Positions 2,707-34,903 of a stretch of DNA of 64,000 bases are shown here, one piece after another (the stretch's first letter is position 1; every line of letters begins with the position of its first letter). The position numbers were made by a program, and so were the translations under genes. This DNA comes from a virus. The DNA lies in IMG/VR virus record IMGVR_UViG_3300046616_000431, positions 1 through 64,000 of that record. One strand, given 5' to 3'. The notes beneath the pieces are model-generated. The model saw only the letters and a program-made list of their open reading frames with translations. It was not told the DNA's origin and did not search any database.

Positions 2707-2745
2707 GACAAAAGCCCCATGACTGTCTGTCATGGGGCTTTTGTC
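2707..2745. terminator. bidirectional terminator
   Basis: perfect 17-bp inverted repeat GACAAAAGCCCCATGAC / GTCATGGGGCTTTTGTC. Confidence 0.8.
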
Positions 2746-2913
2746 ATATGCGCAGTTGGCAGGGTAGCCCATCACAGATGGGGCACCGAGTGTCACTTTT
2801 TTGCATATGCCTAGCGGCGTTCGAAACCGGGTGTAGAGTGATCGAACGCAGACCCCGCCAAGTCTGCTCATCAGCCCGCCACTTGCCGTCTCCACCCGCC
2901 AGGAGATCTCTTC

Positions 2914-3174
2914 ATGTCTTCAGCCGCACCCCCGCGTCTCGCCTCCGAGCACGTCACGAGTGAGCTGATCGACGACTCCTACACCCTCCCCCTCGACCTC
3001 GCGGCTCAGCTGCTGGGGTGTTCCGAGGAGGACGCGCGACGGCTGGTCGACTACTCGCAGCTCAACGCGAAGTCCGGCATCGAAGGCCCGCTCACGGTCA
3101 AAAGGAACCAGGGCGTCACCTTGCTGTCCGTTCTCGCCTACCGCCGCCAGACGGCGACCGCCCACTCCGCCTGA
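2914..3174 (+). CDS. small putative DNA-binding (excisionase/HTH-like) protein
   Basis: AGGAG RBS; LDLAAQLLGCSEEDARRLV resembles a winged-HTH helix pair. Confidence 0.5.
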   Translation: MSSAAPPRLASEHVTSELIDDSYTLPLDLAAQLLGCSEEDARRLVDYSQLNAKSGIEGPLTVKRNQGVTLLSVLAYRRQTATAHSA

Positions 3175-3194
3175 GACGAAAGGGGGCAACCGCC

Positions 3195-3701
3195 ATGCCC
3201 CGGCCCGACATGCTCGCCGTTCGCTCCGCACTGGACCTGACCGACAGGCAGTCTCACCGCCTGGTCGCGTTTGCAGCCCTGGATGACATCACCGGCTACA
3301 AGCGCCCCCGCTCTCTGTGGAACCACCCGACTCTGGCCCGGCAGCTCGGGCTGGGCCCGCACTTCGTGGCCCTCCTGCAGAACTACCTTCTGTACCGCGC
3401 CGCCCGGGACATCAGCCACGCGCAGAGTCTGCGCCCGCACGGCGACAACGTGGCCCTGCTGGTCCGCGTCGAGGACGAAAGGCCGCTGGACCGGATCCGC
3501 ATGGTGGCCAGCAGGCAGCGCGAGGCCCAGCTGGCCGCGCTGCTCGCCCTCGGAATGGTCCGCAAGGTCCGCGTCGAGGGCTTGGTCGTCGTCGACATCG
3601 AAAGATCTCTGGGCCGCGCCTGCGGGCTCGCCTGGGAAGACCTCACCGCCATCTACCAGCGTCAGCGCACCGCCCAGAAGAAGGAGCTGATCGGAGCATG
3701 A
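3195..3701 (+). CDS. hypothetical protein
   Basis: AGGGGG RBS then ATG 3195; GC3 bias. Confidence 0.65.
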   Translation: MPRPDMLAVRSALDLTDRQSHRLVAFAALDDITGYKRPRSLWNHPTLARQLGLGPHFVALLQNYLLYRAARDISHAQSLRPHGDNVALLVRVEDERPLDRIRMVASRQREAQLAALLALGMVRKVRVEGLVVVDIERSLGRACGLAWEDLTAIYQRQRTAQKKELIGA

Positions 3702-4543: not shown

Positions 4544-5092
4544 ATGCTGCTGGCCGATCACCAGATCATTGACCGCATTCACGGCGGAGATCTGAAAATC
4601 TCGCCGTTCGACCCCACCCGAGTACAGCCCGCCTCCGTGGACATGCTGCTCGACCAGTACGTACGCACGCTGGCCGGGCCGAAGTGGGGCGAGATCGACG
4701 TCGCCAACGTCCCAGCCCGGCACACCACGCTCAGCGAGATCGGCGACGACGGCTGGCTGCTGGACCCGGGCGACTTCATCCTCGGTTGCACCGTGGAACG
4801 TGTGACCCTGCCGCCCGATTTGGCAGCGAGGGTCGAAGGCAAGAGTTCCCTGGGCCGGTTGGGCCTGACCGTGCACGTGACGGCAGGCTTCATCGACCCG
4901 GGGTTCAGCGGGCAGATCACGCTGGAGATCGCCAACCTGTCCGGCAAGCCGATCCGGCTCCGGCGGCTGATGCCGATCGCCCAGCTGTGCCTGATCCCGA
5001 TGGCGGCCGTCCCCGAGCGGCCGTACGGGCGGGCGGGCAACCACTACCAGGACCAGTACGGTCCCACGGAGTCGCGCTACGAATTGCGCTGA
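4544..5092 (+). CDS. dcd: dCTP deaminase
   Basis: QPASVD, ARVEGKSSLGRLGL, TAGFIDPGFSGQITLE and YQDQ motifs. Confidence 0.95.
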   Translation: MLLADHQIIDRIHGGDLKISPFDPTRVQPASVDMLLDQYVRTLAGPKWGEIDVANVPARHTTLSEIGDDGWLLDPGDFILGCTVERVTLPPDLAARVEGKSSLGRLGLTVHVTAGFIDPGFSGQITLEIANLSGKPIRLRRLMPIAQLCLIPMAAVPERPYGRAGNHYQDQYGPTESRYELR

Positions 5093-5167
5093 TCCTGGAA
5101 CTTTGGCGGTGGTTGTCGGAGCCCCCCGGCAGAATGACACCACCGCCAAGGCGCAGGGAGAACAGCG

Positions 5168-6940
5168 ATGGCAAAGCGTAAGCAGGGCCTGCTTCCGTGG
5201 CCCGAGAACATCTGGCACACCGAGGGGTGCGCCACCACCGCCGGGCTCGTGTACGACATCCAGACGTACCTGATGCAGATGCACCAGGTGGGACGCATCC
5301 AGCAGTACCGCGAGTTCGACCCCCGGGACAACGACCCCGGCAGCCGCGCGTGGTGGGGGTTCGACGCCGGATGGTGCACCGACGACGGCGCCCGTGTCCG
5401 GGCCCGCCTGAACCTGATGCCGGACCAGATCGAGGCGGAGCATCTGGGGGCGACCCGGGAGACGGTCTCCGCCAACCGCACGATCCCGCTGCGGATGGGC
5501 TGGACCGTGACGGCCGAGGCCGACCGGCCCTGGCAGCCGGAGTGGGCCTCGCCCGCCCTGGCGTTCCTTCCTGCGCGCGGCGACCTGAACTGGGACCGGG
5601 ACTGGCTCACCGGCCAGCTGTCGATGCACGCCATCACGGCCTTCAGCGAGATCGCCCCTGAGCGGACCCGCAAGCTGCTTGAGCAGCTGTCGATGTCCAC
5701 CTGGTACACCACGGTCATCACCCACGACCGGCGCCCCATCACGTCCGAGCCGCTGCCGGGCCTGTTCGGCATGCTGCCGGACAGCATGGTCGGCCGGGTC
5801 CTGGAGATCCGCGCCTACGGCGACCAGGACCAGGTGTTCAACGAGCTGCTCACCGAGCACCGGGTCTCGCTGCCCTGGGGCGGCTCGGTGATCCTGCCGT
5901 CCATCCCGCGCAAGGACCACTGGAACTCGGCCGACTACGCGCTCAGGGTGCCCGGTGGGGACTTCTCCCGGCTGCTGCAGAAGACCGCCCTGCACGTCAT
6001 GCGGTACGCGGCCTTCCCCTCTCACTACCATGACCGGGTCCGTGACGCGGCGGAGAGTATGCGGGCCTCCTGGGAGCTGCCGGAGGTCGAGCTGGCGGCC
6101 GGTCACCTCCAGCTGAAGCTGGACGATGCGCTGCGGGACGTTGGCGAGCTGCGGCTGGAGCTGGAGTCTGCCAGCCTCCGGATCGAGGATCTGGAAGAGA
6201 AGCGCCGGGCGGCCGAGGAGATCGCCAGGGAGGCCGAGGGCACGGTCCTGGAGACGATGAAGGCGTACCGGGAGCACCCGCTGGAGGTGCGGGCGGCGGA
6301 GGCGCTGGCGCAGGCTGAGGCGGCGTTCTCGGAGCAGGAGGCGGCCGAGGCGCTGGCGGAGGACCTGACGGCCGAGGTGTCGTGGCTGCGGCGCCAGCTG
6401 GCCCAGGTGCCCGGCCGCTCGTACGGGGAGAAGGCGCCGGAGCGGCCGAAGGGACCCAGGGACTGGCACGAGCTTCCGGAGCTGATCTCTTCCCTGATGC
6501 CGCACATCGCGCTGGGGATCTCGTGGGAGCCGGTGGAGAAGCTGTACGGGCACAAGCACGAGATGAACTGGCTGCGCCGGACCTGGGACGTCCTGGAGGC
6601 GCTGGAGGCGTACGCGGAGGCGAAGAAGGAGCACGGGTCGGGTGTCCTGCCGCACTTCACCTCCTACCTGAACTGGCCCAAGGCCACGGTCCTGGTTCCC
6701 TTGAGTTTCTACAGCGCCAAGGAGACGTCGGTGCTTCGCCGGGACCCGAAGTGGAAGGCGATGCGGATGGTCAGGGTGCCGGGTCTGGGCGAGGTCTTCA
6801 TGGGCGAGCACTTCCGTATCGGCGGCAACCGGCCTCCCGCGCCGCGCATGCACGTCTACGACGACACCTCCGGCCCGACCGGGAAGATCCACGTCGGTTA
6901 CATCGGCCCGCACCTGCCGAACGGCAACGACGCCTCCTAG
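5168..6940 (+). CDS. coiled-coil protein with putative C-terminal RelE-like nuclease domain
   Basis: long E/A-rich coiled coil; C-terminus HFRIG...PRMHVYDD...IHVGYIGPHL. Confidence 0.6.
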   Translation: MAKRKQGLLPWPENIWHTEGCATTAGLVYDIQTYLMQMHQVGRIQQYREFDPRDNDPGSRAWWGFDAGWCTDDGARVRARLNLMPDQIEAEHLGATRETVSANRTIPLRMGWTVTAEADRPWQPEWASPALAFLPARGDLNWDRDWLTGQLSMHAITAFSEIAPERTRKLLEQLSMSTWYTTVITHDRRPITSEPLPGLFGMLPDSMVGRVLEIRAYGDQDQVFNELLTEHRVSLPWGGSVILPSIPRKDHWNSADYALRVPGGDFSRLLQKTALHVMRYAAFPSHYHDRVRDAAESMRASWELPEVELAAGHLQLKLDDALRDVGELRLELESASLRIEDLEEKRRAAEEIAREAEGTVLETMKAYREHPLEVRAAEALAQAEAAFSEQEAAEALAEDLTAEVSWLRRQLAQVPGRSYGEKAPERPKGPRDWHELPELISSLMPHIALGISWEPVEKLYGHKHEMNWLRRTWDVLEALEAYAEAKKEHGSGVLPHFTSYLNWPKATVLVPLSFYSAKETSVLRRDPKWKAMRMVRVPGLGEVFMGEHFRIGGNRPPAPRMHVYDDTSGPTGKIHVGYIGPHLPNGNDAS

Positions 6941-30813: not shown

Positions 30814-31803
30814 ATGACCGCAGCGCTCCACGCTGGGCACAAGGGCGGCGTCACCGCCAAGAAGTCCGACGACTACGTCAACGACATCCTCGCCCGCCGC
30901 GAGAGCCAGGGCCACGCCCCGCTCTCCACCCAGGCGAAGATGCAGCGCCTCCAGTCCGTCGTCTCCGACCAGACCAACGGCATCAAGCGCCTGGGCGTCG
31001 GCATGATCGGCCCCATCCAGTTGAAGCTCCGCTACCAGGGCATCACCCGGAACGTGCTGGTCGAGGACCCCTGCACCCCCGGCACACCGGTCGAGTACGA
31101 CGTGTGGGACGACCTCGGTCAGGCCTACATGATGTCCGGCACCGAGGGCGAAGTCCGCATCACCCCCTTCGAAGGCAAGCGCATCCAGGTGCGGTTCTTC
31201 CGCATAGCCTCGCGCCCCGCCATCCGCAAGGAAGACCTCCTCTACCTGCGCATCAACGCGGTCGAGCAGGCCCAGGACGAGACCAAGCAGGCCATCCTCA
31301 AGCAGGAGGACTCGCGCCTGATCACGATCCTCCAGGCCGCGATCTCGGACTACACCAACCGCTCCGACCACACGGTCACCCCCAACCACGTGGTCAACGA
31401 GGCGTCGGGCTACCTGACCCCGGGCTCGCTCTACAGCGCGGTCTCCCTGACCGACATGCACGAGCTGCAGTCCAGCCGCATCCTGATCAACCCGATGGAC
31501 TACCGCGACATGTACCGGTGGGACATCAACCAGACGGGCTGGGCCTTCAAGGACCGCGTCGTCGCGGGCGAGACGATCACCTCGTTCGGCGAGTTCCAGC
31601 TCCAGCGCTCCATCGTCGTCCCTCAGGGCGAGACCTACCTGACCCCGGACCCGCAGTTCCTCGGCGTCTTCCCGGTCCTGTACTCGCTCGATGTCGAGGA
31701 AAACCACCGCGTGGAAAGTTTCTGGAAGGGTTGGGTCTTCGATGAGATGATCAGCATGCTGATTTTGAATCCGCGCGGCCTCGCGAAAATCGTGAAGTCG
31801 TAG
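30814..31803 (+). CDS. major capsid protein (HK97 fold)
   Basis: 329 aa; position; very strong codon bias; ends EMISMLILNPRGLAKI, typical of HK97-fold C-terminal strands. Confidence 0.85.
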   Translation: MTAALHAGHKGGVTAKKSDDYVNDILARRESQGHAPLSTQAKMQRLQSVVSDQTNGIKRLGVGMIGPIQLKLRYQGITRNVLVEDPCTPGTPVEYDVWDDLGQAYMMSGTEGEVRITPFEGKRIQVRFFRIASRPAIRKEDLLYLRINAVEQAQDETKQAILKQEDSRLITILQAAISDYTNRSDHTVTPNHVVNEASGYLTPGSLYSAVSLTDMHELQSSRILINPMDYRDMYRWDINQTGWAFKDRVVAGETITSFGEFQLQRSIVVPQGETYLTPDPQFLGVFPVLYSLDVEENHRVESFWKGWVFDEMISMLILNPRGLAKIVKS

Positions 31804-31831
31804 CCGATCCATCTCGTCAAACGTACCACAC

Positions 31832-31878
31832 CGAAGGGCCGTAACTCAAGCCGCAACAGGCTGGGTTGCGGCCCTTCG
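31832..31878 (+). terminator. terminator after MCP
   Basis: CGAAGGGCCG ... CGGCCCTTCG stem. Confidence 0.65.
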
Positions 31879-31938
31879 TGCTGCTCGACAGCAACCCAGG
31901 CCTCTCGCAGCGACCCAACCAAGTGGTTCTCAACTAAA

Positions 31939-31967
31939 TTGCTAAAAAACGAGGGCTCCTCTAGACT
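31939..31967 (+). promoter_or_regulatory. sigma70/HrdB-type promoter for endonuclease gene
   Basis: TTGCTA-N17-TAGACT. Confidence 0.55.
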
Positions 31968-32013
31968 TGCAGGTGTACCGGCCAAGGTGACACCGCCTCC
32001 AGAGGAGCCCTCT

Positions 32014-33672
32014 GTGTCGAATGCTAATGCCAACCTCTACCGAGACCGCGCTGACGAGGTCGAGCGCCTCTTCGTGAACGAGCAGATGTCGGCCCCGAAA
32101 ATCGCTGAGCAGACTGGCGTCCCGGACTACCAGGTCCGCCTGCTGCTTAAAGAGCGCGGCCATGACCTCGCCAAGAGGCGCTCCCAGAAGGAGCTGCGCC
32201 TGCCGGAAGTCACGCCGCTCCTGGAGCAGCGGATGCCTCTCAAGGAGATCGCCAAGCAGACGTCGATCCCGTACGCCACCTTGCGCCGGTGGCTCCAGGA
32301 GGAAGGCATCGACACTGGCGCCAACGACCCGGACGCGACCCGGCGCGAACAGCTCATCGACGAGGTCGTGGCCCGCTACCAGAACACCCAGCCCGCCAAC
32401 ACCATCGCTGCCGACCTGGGGCTCTCGCACGGGACTGTCCTGCGGTGGCTGCACGAGCGCGGAATCGAGATCCGGCGAGCGCCACTCAAGCGCACCGCCC
32501 ACAAGAAGATCAAGCACCTCGACGAGGTGCTGAGGCTGCACCGCGAAGAGGGCAAGACGACCAGCGAGATCACCACCCTCGTGCCGGTCGCTCGGGGCAC
32601 CGTGGAAGCCTGGCTCCGAGACGCTGGAGAGAAGCCCCGCTATAGCACCCCCGCTCAGAAGAAGGCCGAGAGGGAGGAAGACCCCCGGCGTCAGATGGTG
32701 CTGTCCCTCTACCAGAGCGGCTCCACCTGGAAGCAGATCGTCGCCGAGGCTCACGTCGCGGAGACGACGGCGCGCGGCTGGGTTGCGGAGGCCGGAATCC
32801 AGGGGCAGGGTGGCAAGGCTGCGCGGGACACCAGAAAGCGCGCCGAGGCCCTGCGCCTGGCGCGCGAGGAGGACCTGCCCATCATGGAGATCTGCGCGGC
32901 CGTCGAGGCGAGTTACTACAAGGTTCGAGAGTGGCTGGACGAGGAGGGCGTACGCGTCCGCCAGCCCGGCGAGCGAACCCCCGACGGCATCCGCCGCAGC
33001 GCGCAGGGCGCCAAGGGCGGCCCGCGTGGTCGCCGCGCTACCAACCGGCCTGCTGCGCCTATCTCTCGTCGGCCGCGCAACCCCGTGCTCCCGCGCGAGT
33101 GCGCCGCGCCGGACTGCACCGAGACCTTCACGTCGCCCACCCGGAAGTACCACAACGACGAGTGCCGGGCGAAGTGGGCCAAGCGCCGCGAGGCCGACCC
33201 GAACAATCACGTCACCTACACCTGCCAGAACTGCAGTAATGAGTTCACCAGGCCGAGGTCCTCGGGCTCCTTCCGGTACTGCTCCAACGACTGCGCCCAG
33301 CGCCACACCAAGACGAAGCAGCACGTGGTGGTGGAGGACGCGGTGGTGCTGGACTCGTCGTACGAGACTCTTCTGTGGTCGCTGTGCCGTATCTACAAGG
33401 TTCCCGTGGAGCGCTACGACCGAGCTGGCGGAGTGGAGTGGCGTGAGGGCGGCTGGTACGCGCCGGACCTTCTGGTGGAGTGGCAGGGGCGCAGCGTGAC
33501 CGTCGAGACGAAGGGCCTTACCGACCCCGAGGACGAGGAGCGCTGGGCCGCGTTCCGCTCCCAGTCCGACGTCCCCCTGGTCGTCCTGACCCAGGCGGAG
33601 TTGGTGCCGCCTCCGGCCAGCCGCGAGGAGCTGCTGGATTTGCTGGGTCTGGGCAAGATCGTCAAGTCGTAG
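32014..33672 (+). mobile_element. free-standing putative homing endonuclease: 6 HTH repeats, 2 Zn fingers, PD-(D/E)xK nuclease
   Basis: six repeats of xxIA....xxTxRxWLxExG; CAAPDC..YHNDEC and CQNC..YCSNDC; SSYE...YAPDLLV...VETKG; GAGGAG then GTG 32014. Confidence 0.75.
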
Positions 33673-33696
33673 GCCAGGCAGTACGCTTCAGCATGA

Positions 33697-33730
33697 CGGC
33701 CCCCTCTCGGTACGAACGAGAGGGGGCCGT
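33697..33730 (+). terminator. terminator
   Basis: ACGGCCCCCTCTCG ... CGAGAGGGGGCCGT. Confidence 0.7.
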
Positions 33731-34007
33731 TGCGTGCCCACGTGCCCCTAGGAGTGGGCGCCATTTCCCCGGCTACGGGTCTCTGGCCGCGCGGGCGGAC
33801 GGCCAGACCTCGTGAGCCCCTCACTCCTAAGGGAGTGAGGGGTCACTCGATGGCGCGCCTTTGGCTGGTCATCTCGGCGGGTGACATGTTCTCACCCTGA
33901 CACATTCTCAGCACGATGTGTAGTCGATCAGGTCAATTCCGTGTTCCCCCGAATGAATTCGGCCACGCCTGCTGTCCCTGTGTGGGTCGCTCACCATAGG
34001 GGGTGAG

Positions 34008-34088
34008 GGTTTGTGGTGGGCCCTCTTGCGGCTCCGTTCTCCGGCCGCCACTCGACCCCCGGACTCCCTTCCGGGGGTTGAGTGCTGT
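34008..34088 (+). ncRNA. candidate ~80-nt small RNA
   Basis: late-type motif at 33972-34005, no convincing CDS, then hairpin CACTCGACCCCCGGA/TCCGGGGGTTGAGTG (34049-34084). Confidence 0.3.
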
Positions 34089-34160
34089 CTGGGTGCCTGT
34101 GGCCCCAGCAAAGGGTTGACGAGTGCGTTACCGCTCCGTTCCCGATCTCTGGAGGCAGTC

Positions 34161-34547
34161 ATGCAGGTGCAGCGGATTCAGGTCAGCAACCCCTCTGCGG
34201 AGGTGGTCGTCCTCACTCCGGACGCGGACAAGCCGAAGACGTACCTGCGCTTCGAGGGCAAGGGCGATCTCGAAGGTGGCGACGTCCAGTTCGTGTCCCG
34301 GGACACGGTGCTGCAGACGCCGTTCATCAAGGCGGTCAAGCGCGGTGTGCTGCAGGTCGATTCCGACCTGGGCGAGGACACGGAGCTGTCGACTCTGCTG
34401 CGCGTGACGCCTGGTGCGAGGGTCGCGTCGGGGCCGGAGAAGCTCACGGCCACGCGGGTCGTCTACGTCTACGACGAGGACGAAGAGGTCTACAACCGCG
34501 TGGAGAAGAAGATCCCCGTCATCATCGAACCTCTCACGAAGGTGTGA
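34161..34547 (+). CDS. hypothetical head-region protein
   Basis: GGAGG RBS, ATG 34161. Confidence 0.75.
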   Translation: MQVQRIQVSNPSAEVVVLTPDADKPKTYLRFEGKGDLEGGDVQFVSRDTVLQTPFIKAVKRGVLQVDSDLGEDTELSTLLRVTPGARVASGPEKLTATRVVYVYDEDEEVYNRVEKKIPVIIEPLTKV

Positions 34548-34555
34548 CCGGCCCC

Positions 34556-34903
34556 ATGAGCATGAGTGAAAGCGAGCGGCGTCTGCTGCTCTCGGGCACC
34601 CTCGACACCTCTGGTGTCCACGCGGGTGAGCACGCGTTCCTGCCGGAGGTCGCTTCGGCCTGGGAGGCCGATGTCGAGCCGGTCGTCCAGGACGAGTACG
34701 GACCCGAGCCTGAGATCCCCGGCTGGCCCGGGACGCCGGACGGCAGCGAGCACAGAGAGACACCGCAGGCCCCGACTCCCGAGCCGGGTCAGGTGGTTCT
34801 GGGGAAGCCGGAGCCCGCCCCTGCTGCGCCGGTGGCTGTCCAGCCGAAGCCTGCGGCGCGTAAGCGCATCCCGGCCAAGAAGACCACCGCGCCCAAGGAG
34901 TAG
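34556..34903 (+). CDS. hypothetical P/E-rich protein with basic tail
   Basis: operon position; GC3 bias. Confidence 0.6.
   Translation: MSMSESERRLLLSGTLDTSGVHAGEHAFLPEVASAWEADVEPVVQDEYGPEPEIPGWPGTPDGSEHRETPQAPTPEPGQVVLGKPEPAPAAPVAVQPKPAARKRIPAKKTTAPKE

Follow-up and report, generated by a model that had tools for sequence, protein, structure and literature searches.

Why should the major capsid protein (MCP) gene of a phage and the open reading frame (ORF) behind it end in nearly the same words? The question is raised by a 64,000-nucleotide stretch of virus DNA (the window), which makes up positions 1 to 64,000 of the 112-kb IMG/VR virus record IMGVR_UViG_3300046616_000431. Its MCP gene closes with GLAKIVKS-stop (31777-31803), and the ORF at 31939-33672 closes with GLGKIVKS-stop (33646-33672). 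A degenerate pattern for the 27-nucleotide tail matches exactly twice in the 64 kb, once at each of these ends, where 0 matches were expected from 100 shuffles, so the pairing of tails pointed out in an initial annotation of this DNA is confirmed. That annotation proposed that an endonuclease element had inserted at the MCP 3' end and supplied a replacement terminus, and that the original tail was then reused as the C-terminus and stop codon of the nuclease. This proposal is supported by eight element-free relatives and by a pair of Gordonia phages, and it is highly probable that the locus carries a free-standing homing-endonuclease cassette situated about 8 codons before the MCP end in a Bxz1-like myovirus.

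The insert is defined by comparison with related loci. Scanning viral contigs yielded 80 related MCP loci, and a megablast search of the window locus against GenBank phages gave no match. Most close relatives of the window lack the nuclease, and blastn indicates that in element-free relatives the MCP stop leads directly to the homologue of window 33646/33800 onward. In the eight closest element-free loci (L009, L010, L015, L016, L018, L019, L021, and L023), the MCP gene has a GC-rich end, ...CGCGGTCTGGCCAAGATCGTCAAG..., that is, CGC GGT CTG GCC AAG ATC GTC AAG AGC TGA. Directly after the stop comes a GGCCCCCTC-type hairpin that is homologous to the terminator of window 33673 onward, which is the arrangement that the initial annotation had predicted for relatives lacking the element. 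In L021, the stretch from 4961 to 5917, comprising the last 27 MCP nucleotides and the downstream genes, aligns to window 33646-34618. The relic tail that now closes the nuclease ORF is identical to the element-free MCP ends at 22 of its first 23 nucleotides and is contiguous with the native downstream region. The window and genomes such as L009 and L021 thus differ by presence or absence of the element at one site, and a second close pair, RedWattleHog and Stormageddon, differs in the same manner.

The tail that the window MCP gene now carries has been rewritten synonymously. Within the last 20 MCP codons, 12 synonymous differences separate the window from the element-free consensus, and other element-bearing loci have 7-12, compared with 0-1 in element-free loci. 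A weaker excess extends over codons -40 to -20 (11 synonymous differences in the window versus 2-7 in element-free loci). Nucleotide identity between the window and its relatives is 87-91% in the body of the MCP gene and 68-82% at 31681-31803. Codons ending in A or T account for 9 of the last 40 codons versus 9 of the first 289 (Fisher p = 5e-5). The gain of such codons that had been reported for the last ~40 codons is therefore real, although it is very clear in the last ~18-20 codons and the preceding codons, -40 to -20, are moderately above background. The nuclease ORF has a GC content at third codon positions (GC3) of 0.87, and therefore the shift is confined to the capsid tail and is no general property of the inserted DNA. 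Similarly, among 68 distinct MCP 3' ends, the last 20 codons include on average 4.5 A/T-ending codons where a nuclease is present versus 2.1 where it is not, and the gene bodies are equal, with 1.1 such codons per 20. At the presumed target, the element-bearing and empty alleles are thus set apart by synonymous rewriting confined to the MCP tail.

Judged from genome comparison, the clearest proof of the proposed architecture is the pair formed by the phages RedWattleHog and Stormageddon, in which it can be followed at base-pair resolution. Both are Gordonia phages with Gordonia terrae as the laboratory host. RedWattleHog and >100 Bixzunavirus mycobacteriophages carry, directly downstream of the MCP gene, a gene whose product is ~30% identical to the C-terminal third of the window protein. 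Stormageddon, the sister of RedWattleHog, lacks the nuclease gene. The two genomes have 9 differences in the 2,830 nucleotides up to the MCP stop, 8 of which fall at MCP nucleotides 972-996, within the last 31 nucleotides. The Stormageddon MCP gene ends GCA CGC GGT CTC ATC ATC CTG CGC AAG TCC TAG, and that of RedWattleHog ends GCC AGG GGC CTG ATC ATC CTT CGG AAA TCC TAG. The encoded protein is the same, and the two ends are separated by 7 synonymous changes over 11 codons. In RedWattleHog, the nuclease ORF finishes with ...CCG ATC ATC CTG CGC AAG TCC TAG, and its last 21 nucleotides and ~690 nucleotides beyond are 100% identical to the Stormageddon MCP end and the DNA downstream.

A second insertion of similar style is present in RedWattleHog (L002) at 4582-5122, relative to Stormageddon (L004). 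There, the gene for ribonucleotide reductase beta is followed directly by gp18, which is annotated as an HNH endonuclease. After the ~690 nucleotides of identity, the end of the reductase gene differs from Stormageddon, from ~4582, mostly at every third base. The site looks like another rewritten 3' end beside a different nuclease family.

The C-terminus of the nuclease matches the MCP tail of the genome in which it resides: GLGKIVKS in the window, IILRKS in RedWattleHog, LASITKS in L083/84/100-102, GIAAVVKS in L099, and IATITKTP in L109. Among database homologues, P0010 and P0021 end in GLAKIVKS, and P0020 ends in IATITKNP. Besides the window and RedWattleHog, at least five other lineages have a nuclease ORF that closes with the tail of the resident MCP. 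Most close nuclease homologues end in ...LLGLA-stop. Because the ORF end varies together with the resident capsid gene, it is no intrinsic nuclease motif. A GKIVKS ending shared by homologous nucleases independently of the MCP, which had been named beforehand as an argument against the proposal, is not what was found, since most end in ...LLGLA and the longer ones match the resident MCP.

Several loci are suggestive of elements that have decayed or been lost. In L017, the ...LLGLA-stop end runs into DNA homologous to the native intergenic sequence just after the L023 MCP stop, as expected if the relic was lost between short TCTGGC repeats, a step that we infer from the alignment. L024 and L025 (4988-5030) have a rewritten MCP tail, a 25-nucleotide spacer, 17 of the last 18 nucleotides of an L017-type nuclease ORF, and then the terminator, with no nuclease. 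L013 (4988-5030) likewise has a rewritten tail and no nuclease, and the relic of the nuclease 3' end measures 16-18 nucleotides across the three loci. These are probably footprints of element loss in which the rewritten allele was kept. In Bixzunaviruses, the MCP tails beside the nuclease are full of rare codons (CCA AGA GGC ATA ... CTT AGG AAA in NuevoMundo), whereas nuclease-free Myrna has a plain GC-rich tail. A relic tail was looked for behind the Bixzunavirus nuclease, and none was found. The 112-kb record holds no second copy of the nuclease.

The native intergenic DNA after the MCP stop, TCTGGCAGGTAGGATCGACGAAGG in L023 (1562-1590; window 33673-33695), loosely resembles the MCP tail TCTGGCCAAGATCGTCAAGAG. 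As a speculation, this stretch could be what is left, after decay, of an earlier tail replacement.

Which kind of enzyme does the inserted gene encode? The initial annotation had started the ORF at TTG 31939, a position inside the promoter that it proposed, and the likely start is instead GTG 32014, which is preceded by GAGGAG. The resulting 552-residue protein is also called in public data (P0001). An architecture of six helix-turn-helix (HTH) modules, two zinc fingers, and a PD-(D/E)xK domain had been assigned to it, and this is borne out by Pfam and PHROG matches, invariant residues, and the predicted fold. HTH matches in Pfam and PHROG cover residues 37-83, 94-121, 140-173, 196-229, 251-301, and 301-335, and residues 39-226 resemble annotated homing endonucleases of Vibrio phages, with a match to phrog_8446 at E 2e-23. 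The likeness of the HTH array is to the DNA-binding parts of such phage enzymes. Alignment A1 has invariant cysteines at C59, C62, C78, and C82 and nearly invariant ones at C35 and C39. The E..PD..ExK set (E106, D140, E153, and K155) is invariant in 38 sequences and fully intact in the window, where the catalytic candidates are Glu 33364-33366, Asp 33466-33468, Glu 33505-33507, and Lys 33511-33513. The DNA-binding arrays vary among family members, from 0 to 6 HTH modules.

The nuclease core matched no Pfam family, and searching PDB chains by sequence returned nothing meaningful. An AlphaFold (AF2) model of the last 207 residues is confident, with a pLDDT of 90.6. In a Foldseek search with this model, no match reached E <= 0.001; the leading rows, with E values from about 2e-3 upward, are all PD-(D/E)xK proteins (Bax1, Hjc, the R2 restriction-like endonuclease, VRR-NUC, and RecU). 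With the matches nearly unanimous and the motif intact, the catalytic domain is predicted to adopt the PD-(D/E)xK superfamily fold. No LAGLIDADG, GIY-YIG, or intein-type Pfam domain was matched, and no HNH Pfam family was matched at E up to 10 on the C-terminal part. The PHROG labels that read 'HNH' match only the HTH and zinc-finger regions. For PF05367 (phage endonuclease I), the window protein gives no match, and RedWattleHog gp16 scores 13.9 bits versus a cut-off of 29.1. Membership in the HNH or T7-endonuclease-I families is therefore unsupported, and the names that GenBank records give to the nuclease, HNH endonuclease or Holliday junction resolvase, appear to be wrong in light of the predicted fold. 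In the NuevoMundo record (MG812493; L001), the nuclease gene (2707-3648 of the locus) is annotated 'major capsid protein', and the real MCP gene (1484-2485) is a 'hypothetical protein'.

Expression signals around the nuclease gene were also considered. The initial annotation had credited the element with its own terminator and a TTGCTA-N17-TAGACT promoter. Hairpins do follow both stop codons and the hexamers are present, although neither hairpin (31832-31878 or 33695-33731) has a T-run and a simple terminator scan called neither. TTGCTA (31939-31944) and TAGACT (31962-31967), with the 17-nucleotide spacer between them, match the sigma-70 consensus at 8 of 12 positions. The -10-like TAGACT abuts the 5' arm of a further hairpin, in which the Shine-Dalgarno sequence of the nuclease gene, GAGGAG (32002-32007), is paired. 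The Shine-Dalgarno sequence is fully paired in a hairpin in all six of six sequence-diverse elements, with z from -5.9 to -8.4, compared with 1 of 28 control gene starts in the window. In L026, L089, L092, L042, and L083, whose hairpin arms are unrelated in sequence, the Shine-Dalgarno-pairing hairpins have z of -6.1 to -8.4, and all five have a TANNNT hexamer, located in the loop or where the 5' arm ends. In transcripts that read through from the capsid gene, the hairpin would bury the ribosome-binding site of the nuclease gene. Transcripts begun at the -10-like hexamer would be without the 5' arm of the hairpin and might be translated. The same design is known for T4 I-TevI, SegB, and Aeh1 MobE, in which a hairpin hides the ribosome-binding site and the promoter is placed so that the gene's own transcripts escape (Edgell, Gibb and Belfort 2010, PMC2988022). 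For these three, as well as I-TevII and I-TevIII, read-through transcripts are silent, and those from a promoter inside the structure are translated (PMC2988022).

The MCP and nuclease ORFs share a reading frame in the window, with a single TAG (31801-31803) between them, after which the frame is open for 622 codons. This is probably chance. Translation of an MCP-nuclease fusion by read-through was considered and set aside as improbable, because other elements are in other frames (gaps of 23 and 53 nucleotides) and a strong hairpin intervenes.

Over its full length, the window MCP shares 58-59% identity with its counterparts in Gordonia phages Skog and Stormageddon, Rhodococcus phage Finch, and Bxz1/Myrna-type mycobacteriophages, and the MCPs of uncultured relatives are 88-92% identical to it. 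A gene for a phage cement protein is located upstream. The host of the window virus is most likely Streptomyces, to judge from sequence affinity, because ~150-kb contigs of Streptomyces assemblies carry close relatives of the nuclease. One homologue, P0002 from a Streptomyces cellulosae assembly, is 85% identical to the window nuclease. Features of the locus are collected in the table.

Table. Positions of features at the MCP-nuclease locus, in window coordinates.
Feature	Position	Strand	Basis
Major capsid protein (MCP) gene, 329 aa, complete with own stop	30814..31803	+	Identity to annotated MCPs
Synonymously rewritten MCP 3' end, strongest from about 31750	31681..31803	+	Codon usage and comparison with relatives
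Insert absent from element-free relatives, 1,842 bp	31804..33645	+	blastn synteny
Hairpin after new MCP stop, terminator-like, no U-run	31832..31878	+	Fold of 31800-31900: -44.8 kcal/mol, z -4.97
Promoter-like TTGCTA-N17-TAGACT	31939..31967	+	Read from sequence
Hairpin with 12-bp stem, pairing the Shine-Dalgarno sequence of the nuclease gene	31951..32012	+	-41.7 kcal/mol, z -5.8
Nuclease gene, 552 aa from GTG 32014	32014..33672	+	Six HTH modules, two zinc fingers, PD-(D/E)xK domain
Six HTH modules, DNA-reading part	32044..32943	+	Separate HTH-family matches
Two Cys-rich zinc-finger/ribbon modules	33094..33336	+	Alignment A1
PD-(D/E)xK nuclease core	33337..33645	+	Invariant motif, predicted structure
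Native MCP tail relic (GLGKIVKS-stop), now last 8 codons and stop of nuclease ORF	33646..33672	+	Match to element-free ends
Native MCP terminator hairpin, now behind nuclease gene	33695..33731	+	15-bp stem, -42 kcal/mol, z -4.6

How might such a locus arise and persist? The cassette consists, in order, of the rewritten MCP 3' end with its stop, the terminator-like hairpin, the promoter-like site, and a nuclease ORF that has no stop of its own. This ORF reads in frame into the stranded native MCP tail and uses the stop and terminator of that tail. The enzyme would cut element-free MCP alleles near the conserved ...ILNPRG(L/I)... codons, and repair from an element-bearing genome in the same cell would copy the cassette in. 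The rewritten tail, which the initial annotation took to be nuclease-immune, would keep the left junction from re-creating the target site, and it would also lower the direct-repeat homology through which the element could be deleted. The insert, the replaced tail, the relic, the recurrence of the same layout in several lineages, and a predicted PD-(D/E)xK fold with an intact motif can be read from the sequences themselves. The immunity of the rewritten tail, cutting of the element-free allele, and the position of the cut are presumed from them. As in other homing elements that replace 3' ends, a replacement end is supplied, and the native end is stranded downstream.

A further idea, to which we give a small chance, is that the modular HTH and zinc-finger arrays are an extensible DNA reader in which array length sets target length. 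The protein would then be a re-targetable scaffold and a weapon against the capsid genes of co-infecting relatives. The rewritten tract does seem to be longer with a longer array, comprising ~40 codons in the window (six HTH modules and two zinc fingers) versus ~11 in RedWattleHog (zinc fingers only), a trend that would follow if the modular reading were true.

Several points weigh against the homing explanation. Cleavage, the target site, and biased inheritance are predictions. No sampled relative has the exact rewritten tail of the window, and none is closer to it in the tail than in the gene body, so that no donor is identified. The nuclease-free loci L048, L076, and L043 also have rare-codon MCP tails (ATT TTG AAY SCA AGG GGA ATH, within the last 20 codons), and downstream of these or other nuclease-free rewritten tails Pfam recognized no nuclease family. 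Such tails could be resistant alleles that outlasted a lost element, or they could be targeted by an element of an unrecognized kind. The difference in A/T-ending codons among the 68 MCP 3' ends has a Mann-Whitney p of 3e-6, but this value overstates independence because the loci are phylogenetically related, and it offers descriptive support only. A consensus promoter scan called no TTGCTA-N17-TAGACT promoter, the match to the consensus being weak. Finally, the scores from an exhaustive structural aligner are Z 7.3-7.5 for TnsA, Vsr, the homing endonuclease I-Bth0305I, and VRR-NUC and Z 5.4 for I-Ssp6803I, and by the aligner's own note a Z of 7-8 is middling.

Other explanations account for parts of these data. 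The gene could encode a housekeeping phage nuclease, such as a Holliday-junction resolvase or a packaging-related enzyme, with a conserved place behind the MCP gene, and the similarity of the tails could be a by-product of mosaic recombination. Homologues do lie directly downstream of the MCP gene in the >100 Bixzunavirus genomes, where they go under the names 'Holliday junction resolvase' or 'HNH endonuclease'; the RedWattleHog protein has a weak similarity to T7 endonuclease I (PF05367, E 0.042, below the cut-off); and the resolvases Hjc and RecU are among the fold matches. A housekeeping enzyme would not, however, be expected to occur in only one of two nearly identical phages, to be missing from most close relatives of the window, or to vary so widely in its DNA-binding array. 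Its presence also goes with rewriting of exactly the flanking MCP codons, and the end of its ORF tracks the resident MCP tail. We therefore regard a housekeeping role as quite improbable. A transposon-like insertion, in which the two tails are a target-site duplication, is hardly credible, even though a short sequence occurs on both sides of the inserted gene. Of the two copies in RedWattleHog, the right one is identical to the empty site, and the left one has synonymous changes that the otherwise near-identical genome lacks. The supposed duplication preserves the protein sequence and not the DNA sequence. The locus has no transposase, and terminal inverted repeats, for which no specific search was made, were not noticed.

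It is unlikely, but a degree less so, that the element is spent or domesticated and no longer homes, and that it is kept because it holds the only functional 3' end and terminator of the capsid gene or serves competition between phages. The gene seems nearly fixed in Bixzunaviruses, with no relic tail behind it; deletion of a cassette that includes the MCP tail would be lethal; and the footprint alleles show loss of the nuclease with the rewritten tail retained. On the other hand, the window ORF is intact, with all four catalytic residues and the zinc ligands, and the presence/absence polymorphism among close relatives indicates recent mobility. A group I or II intron and an intein were also rejected, because the MCP gene lacks no part, has a stop codon of its own, and can be aligned over its whole length with homologues that are not interrupted. 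An Rfam search at E up to 1 revealed no intron RNA family.

The homing cassette has counterparts outside phages, and for this reason the initial annotation's description of it as unusual overstates the novelty of the mechanism. The mORFs of fungal mitochondria form 'gene hybrids' with atp6 in Allomyces macrogynus and with atp6, atp9, cox2, and nad3 in Glomus (Beaudet et al. 2013, PMC3630166). They, too, place an endonuclease ORF in the 3' part of an essential gene, supply a foreign and mostly synonymous C-terminus, and leave the native C-terminus stranded downstream, and in Glomus atp6 and nad3 the inserted C-terminal sequence and the mORF are tabulated as in phase with the native gene (PMC3630166). 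Unlike mORFs, which encode LAGLIDADG or GIY-YIG enzymes, the window element occupies a phage capsid gene and encodes a PD-(D/E)xK nuclease with HTH and zinc-finger arrays. In addition, the host gene retains a stop codon of its own along with a terminator-like hairpin, and the relic is only 7-9 codons long. The WHO elements of yeast, as described by Coughlan et al. (2020, PMC7282813), home into the conserved and essential aldolase gene FBA1 and replace its 3' end at each integration, with allele-specific cleavage. WHO proteins are intein-like LAGLIDADG-zinc-finger fusions of nuclear genomes, whereas the present element involves another nuclease family and host, and cleavage by its enzyme is a prediction. 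The window element would work like mORFs and WHO elements and is unrelated to them, its nuclease being of a different type.

Among phages, homing endonuclease genes cluster near capsid genes (PMC10448857). The free-standing Seg and Mob endonucleases of T-even phages are likewise encoded beside or between essential genes, and their genes spread in mixed infections via double-strand-break repair (PMC2988022). The T4 free-standing enzymes, however, are GIY-YIG or HNH proteins that cut hundreds to thousands of base pairs from their own genes (PMC2988022), whereas the window gene lies inside the coding end of its target, replaces that end, and takes the old end as its own C-terminus. The literature search, which was not exhaustive, found no paper on phages in which a gene tail is replaced and the native tail captured. 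The window nuclease has a predicted catalytic fold in common with the homing endonucleases I-Ssp6803I (Z 5.4) and I-Bth0305I (Z 7.4), although sequence identity is 8-9% and the window nuclease is free-standing. I-Ssp6803I and I-Bth0305I are both encoded within group I introns.

The replacement of 3' ends by homing elements, previously described for fungal mitochondria and yeast, thus very probably operates in tailed phages too, and on their most essential structural gene. The same layout is present in cultured Gordonia phages, and in Bxz1-type mycobacteriophages homologues of the nuclease adjoin rewritten MCP tails, without the relic. The enzymes form a nuclease family that has no Pfam model and to which GenBank records give names that appear to be wrong: HNH endonuclease, Holliday junction resolvase, or even major capsid protein. 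Such elements would account for local anomalies of codon usage and for mosaic boundaries where capsid genes end, and in phylogenies MCP 3' ends can have a history unlike that of the rest of the gene.

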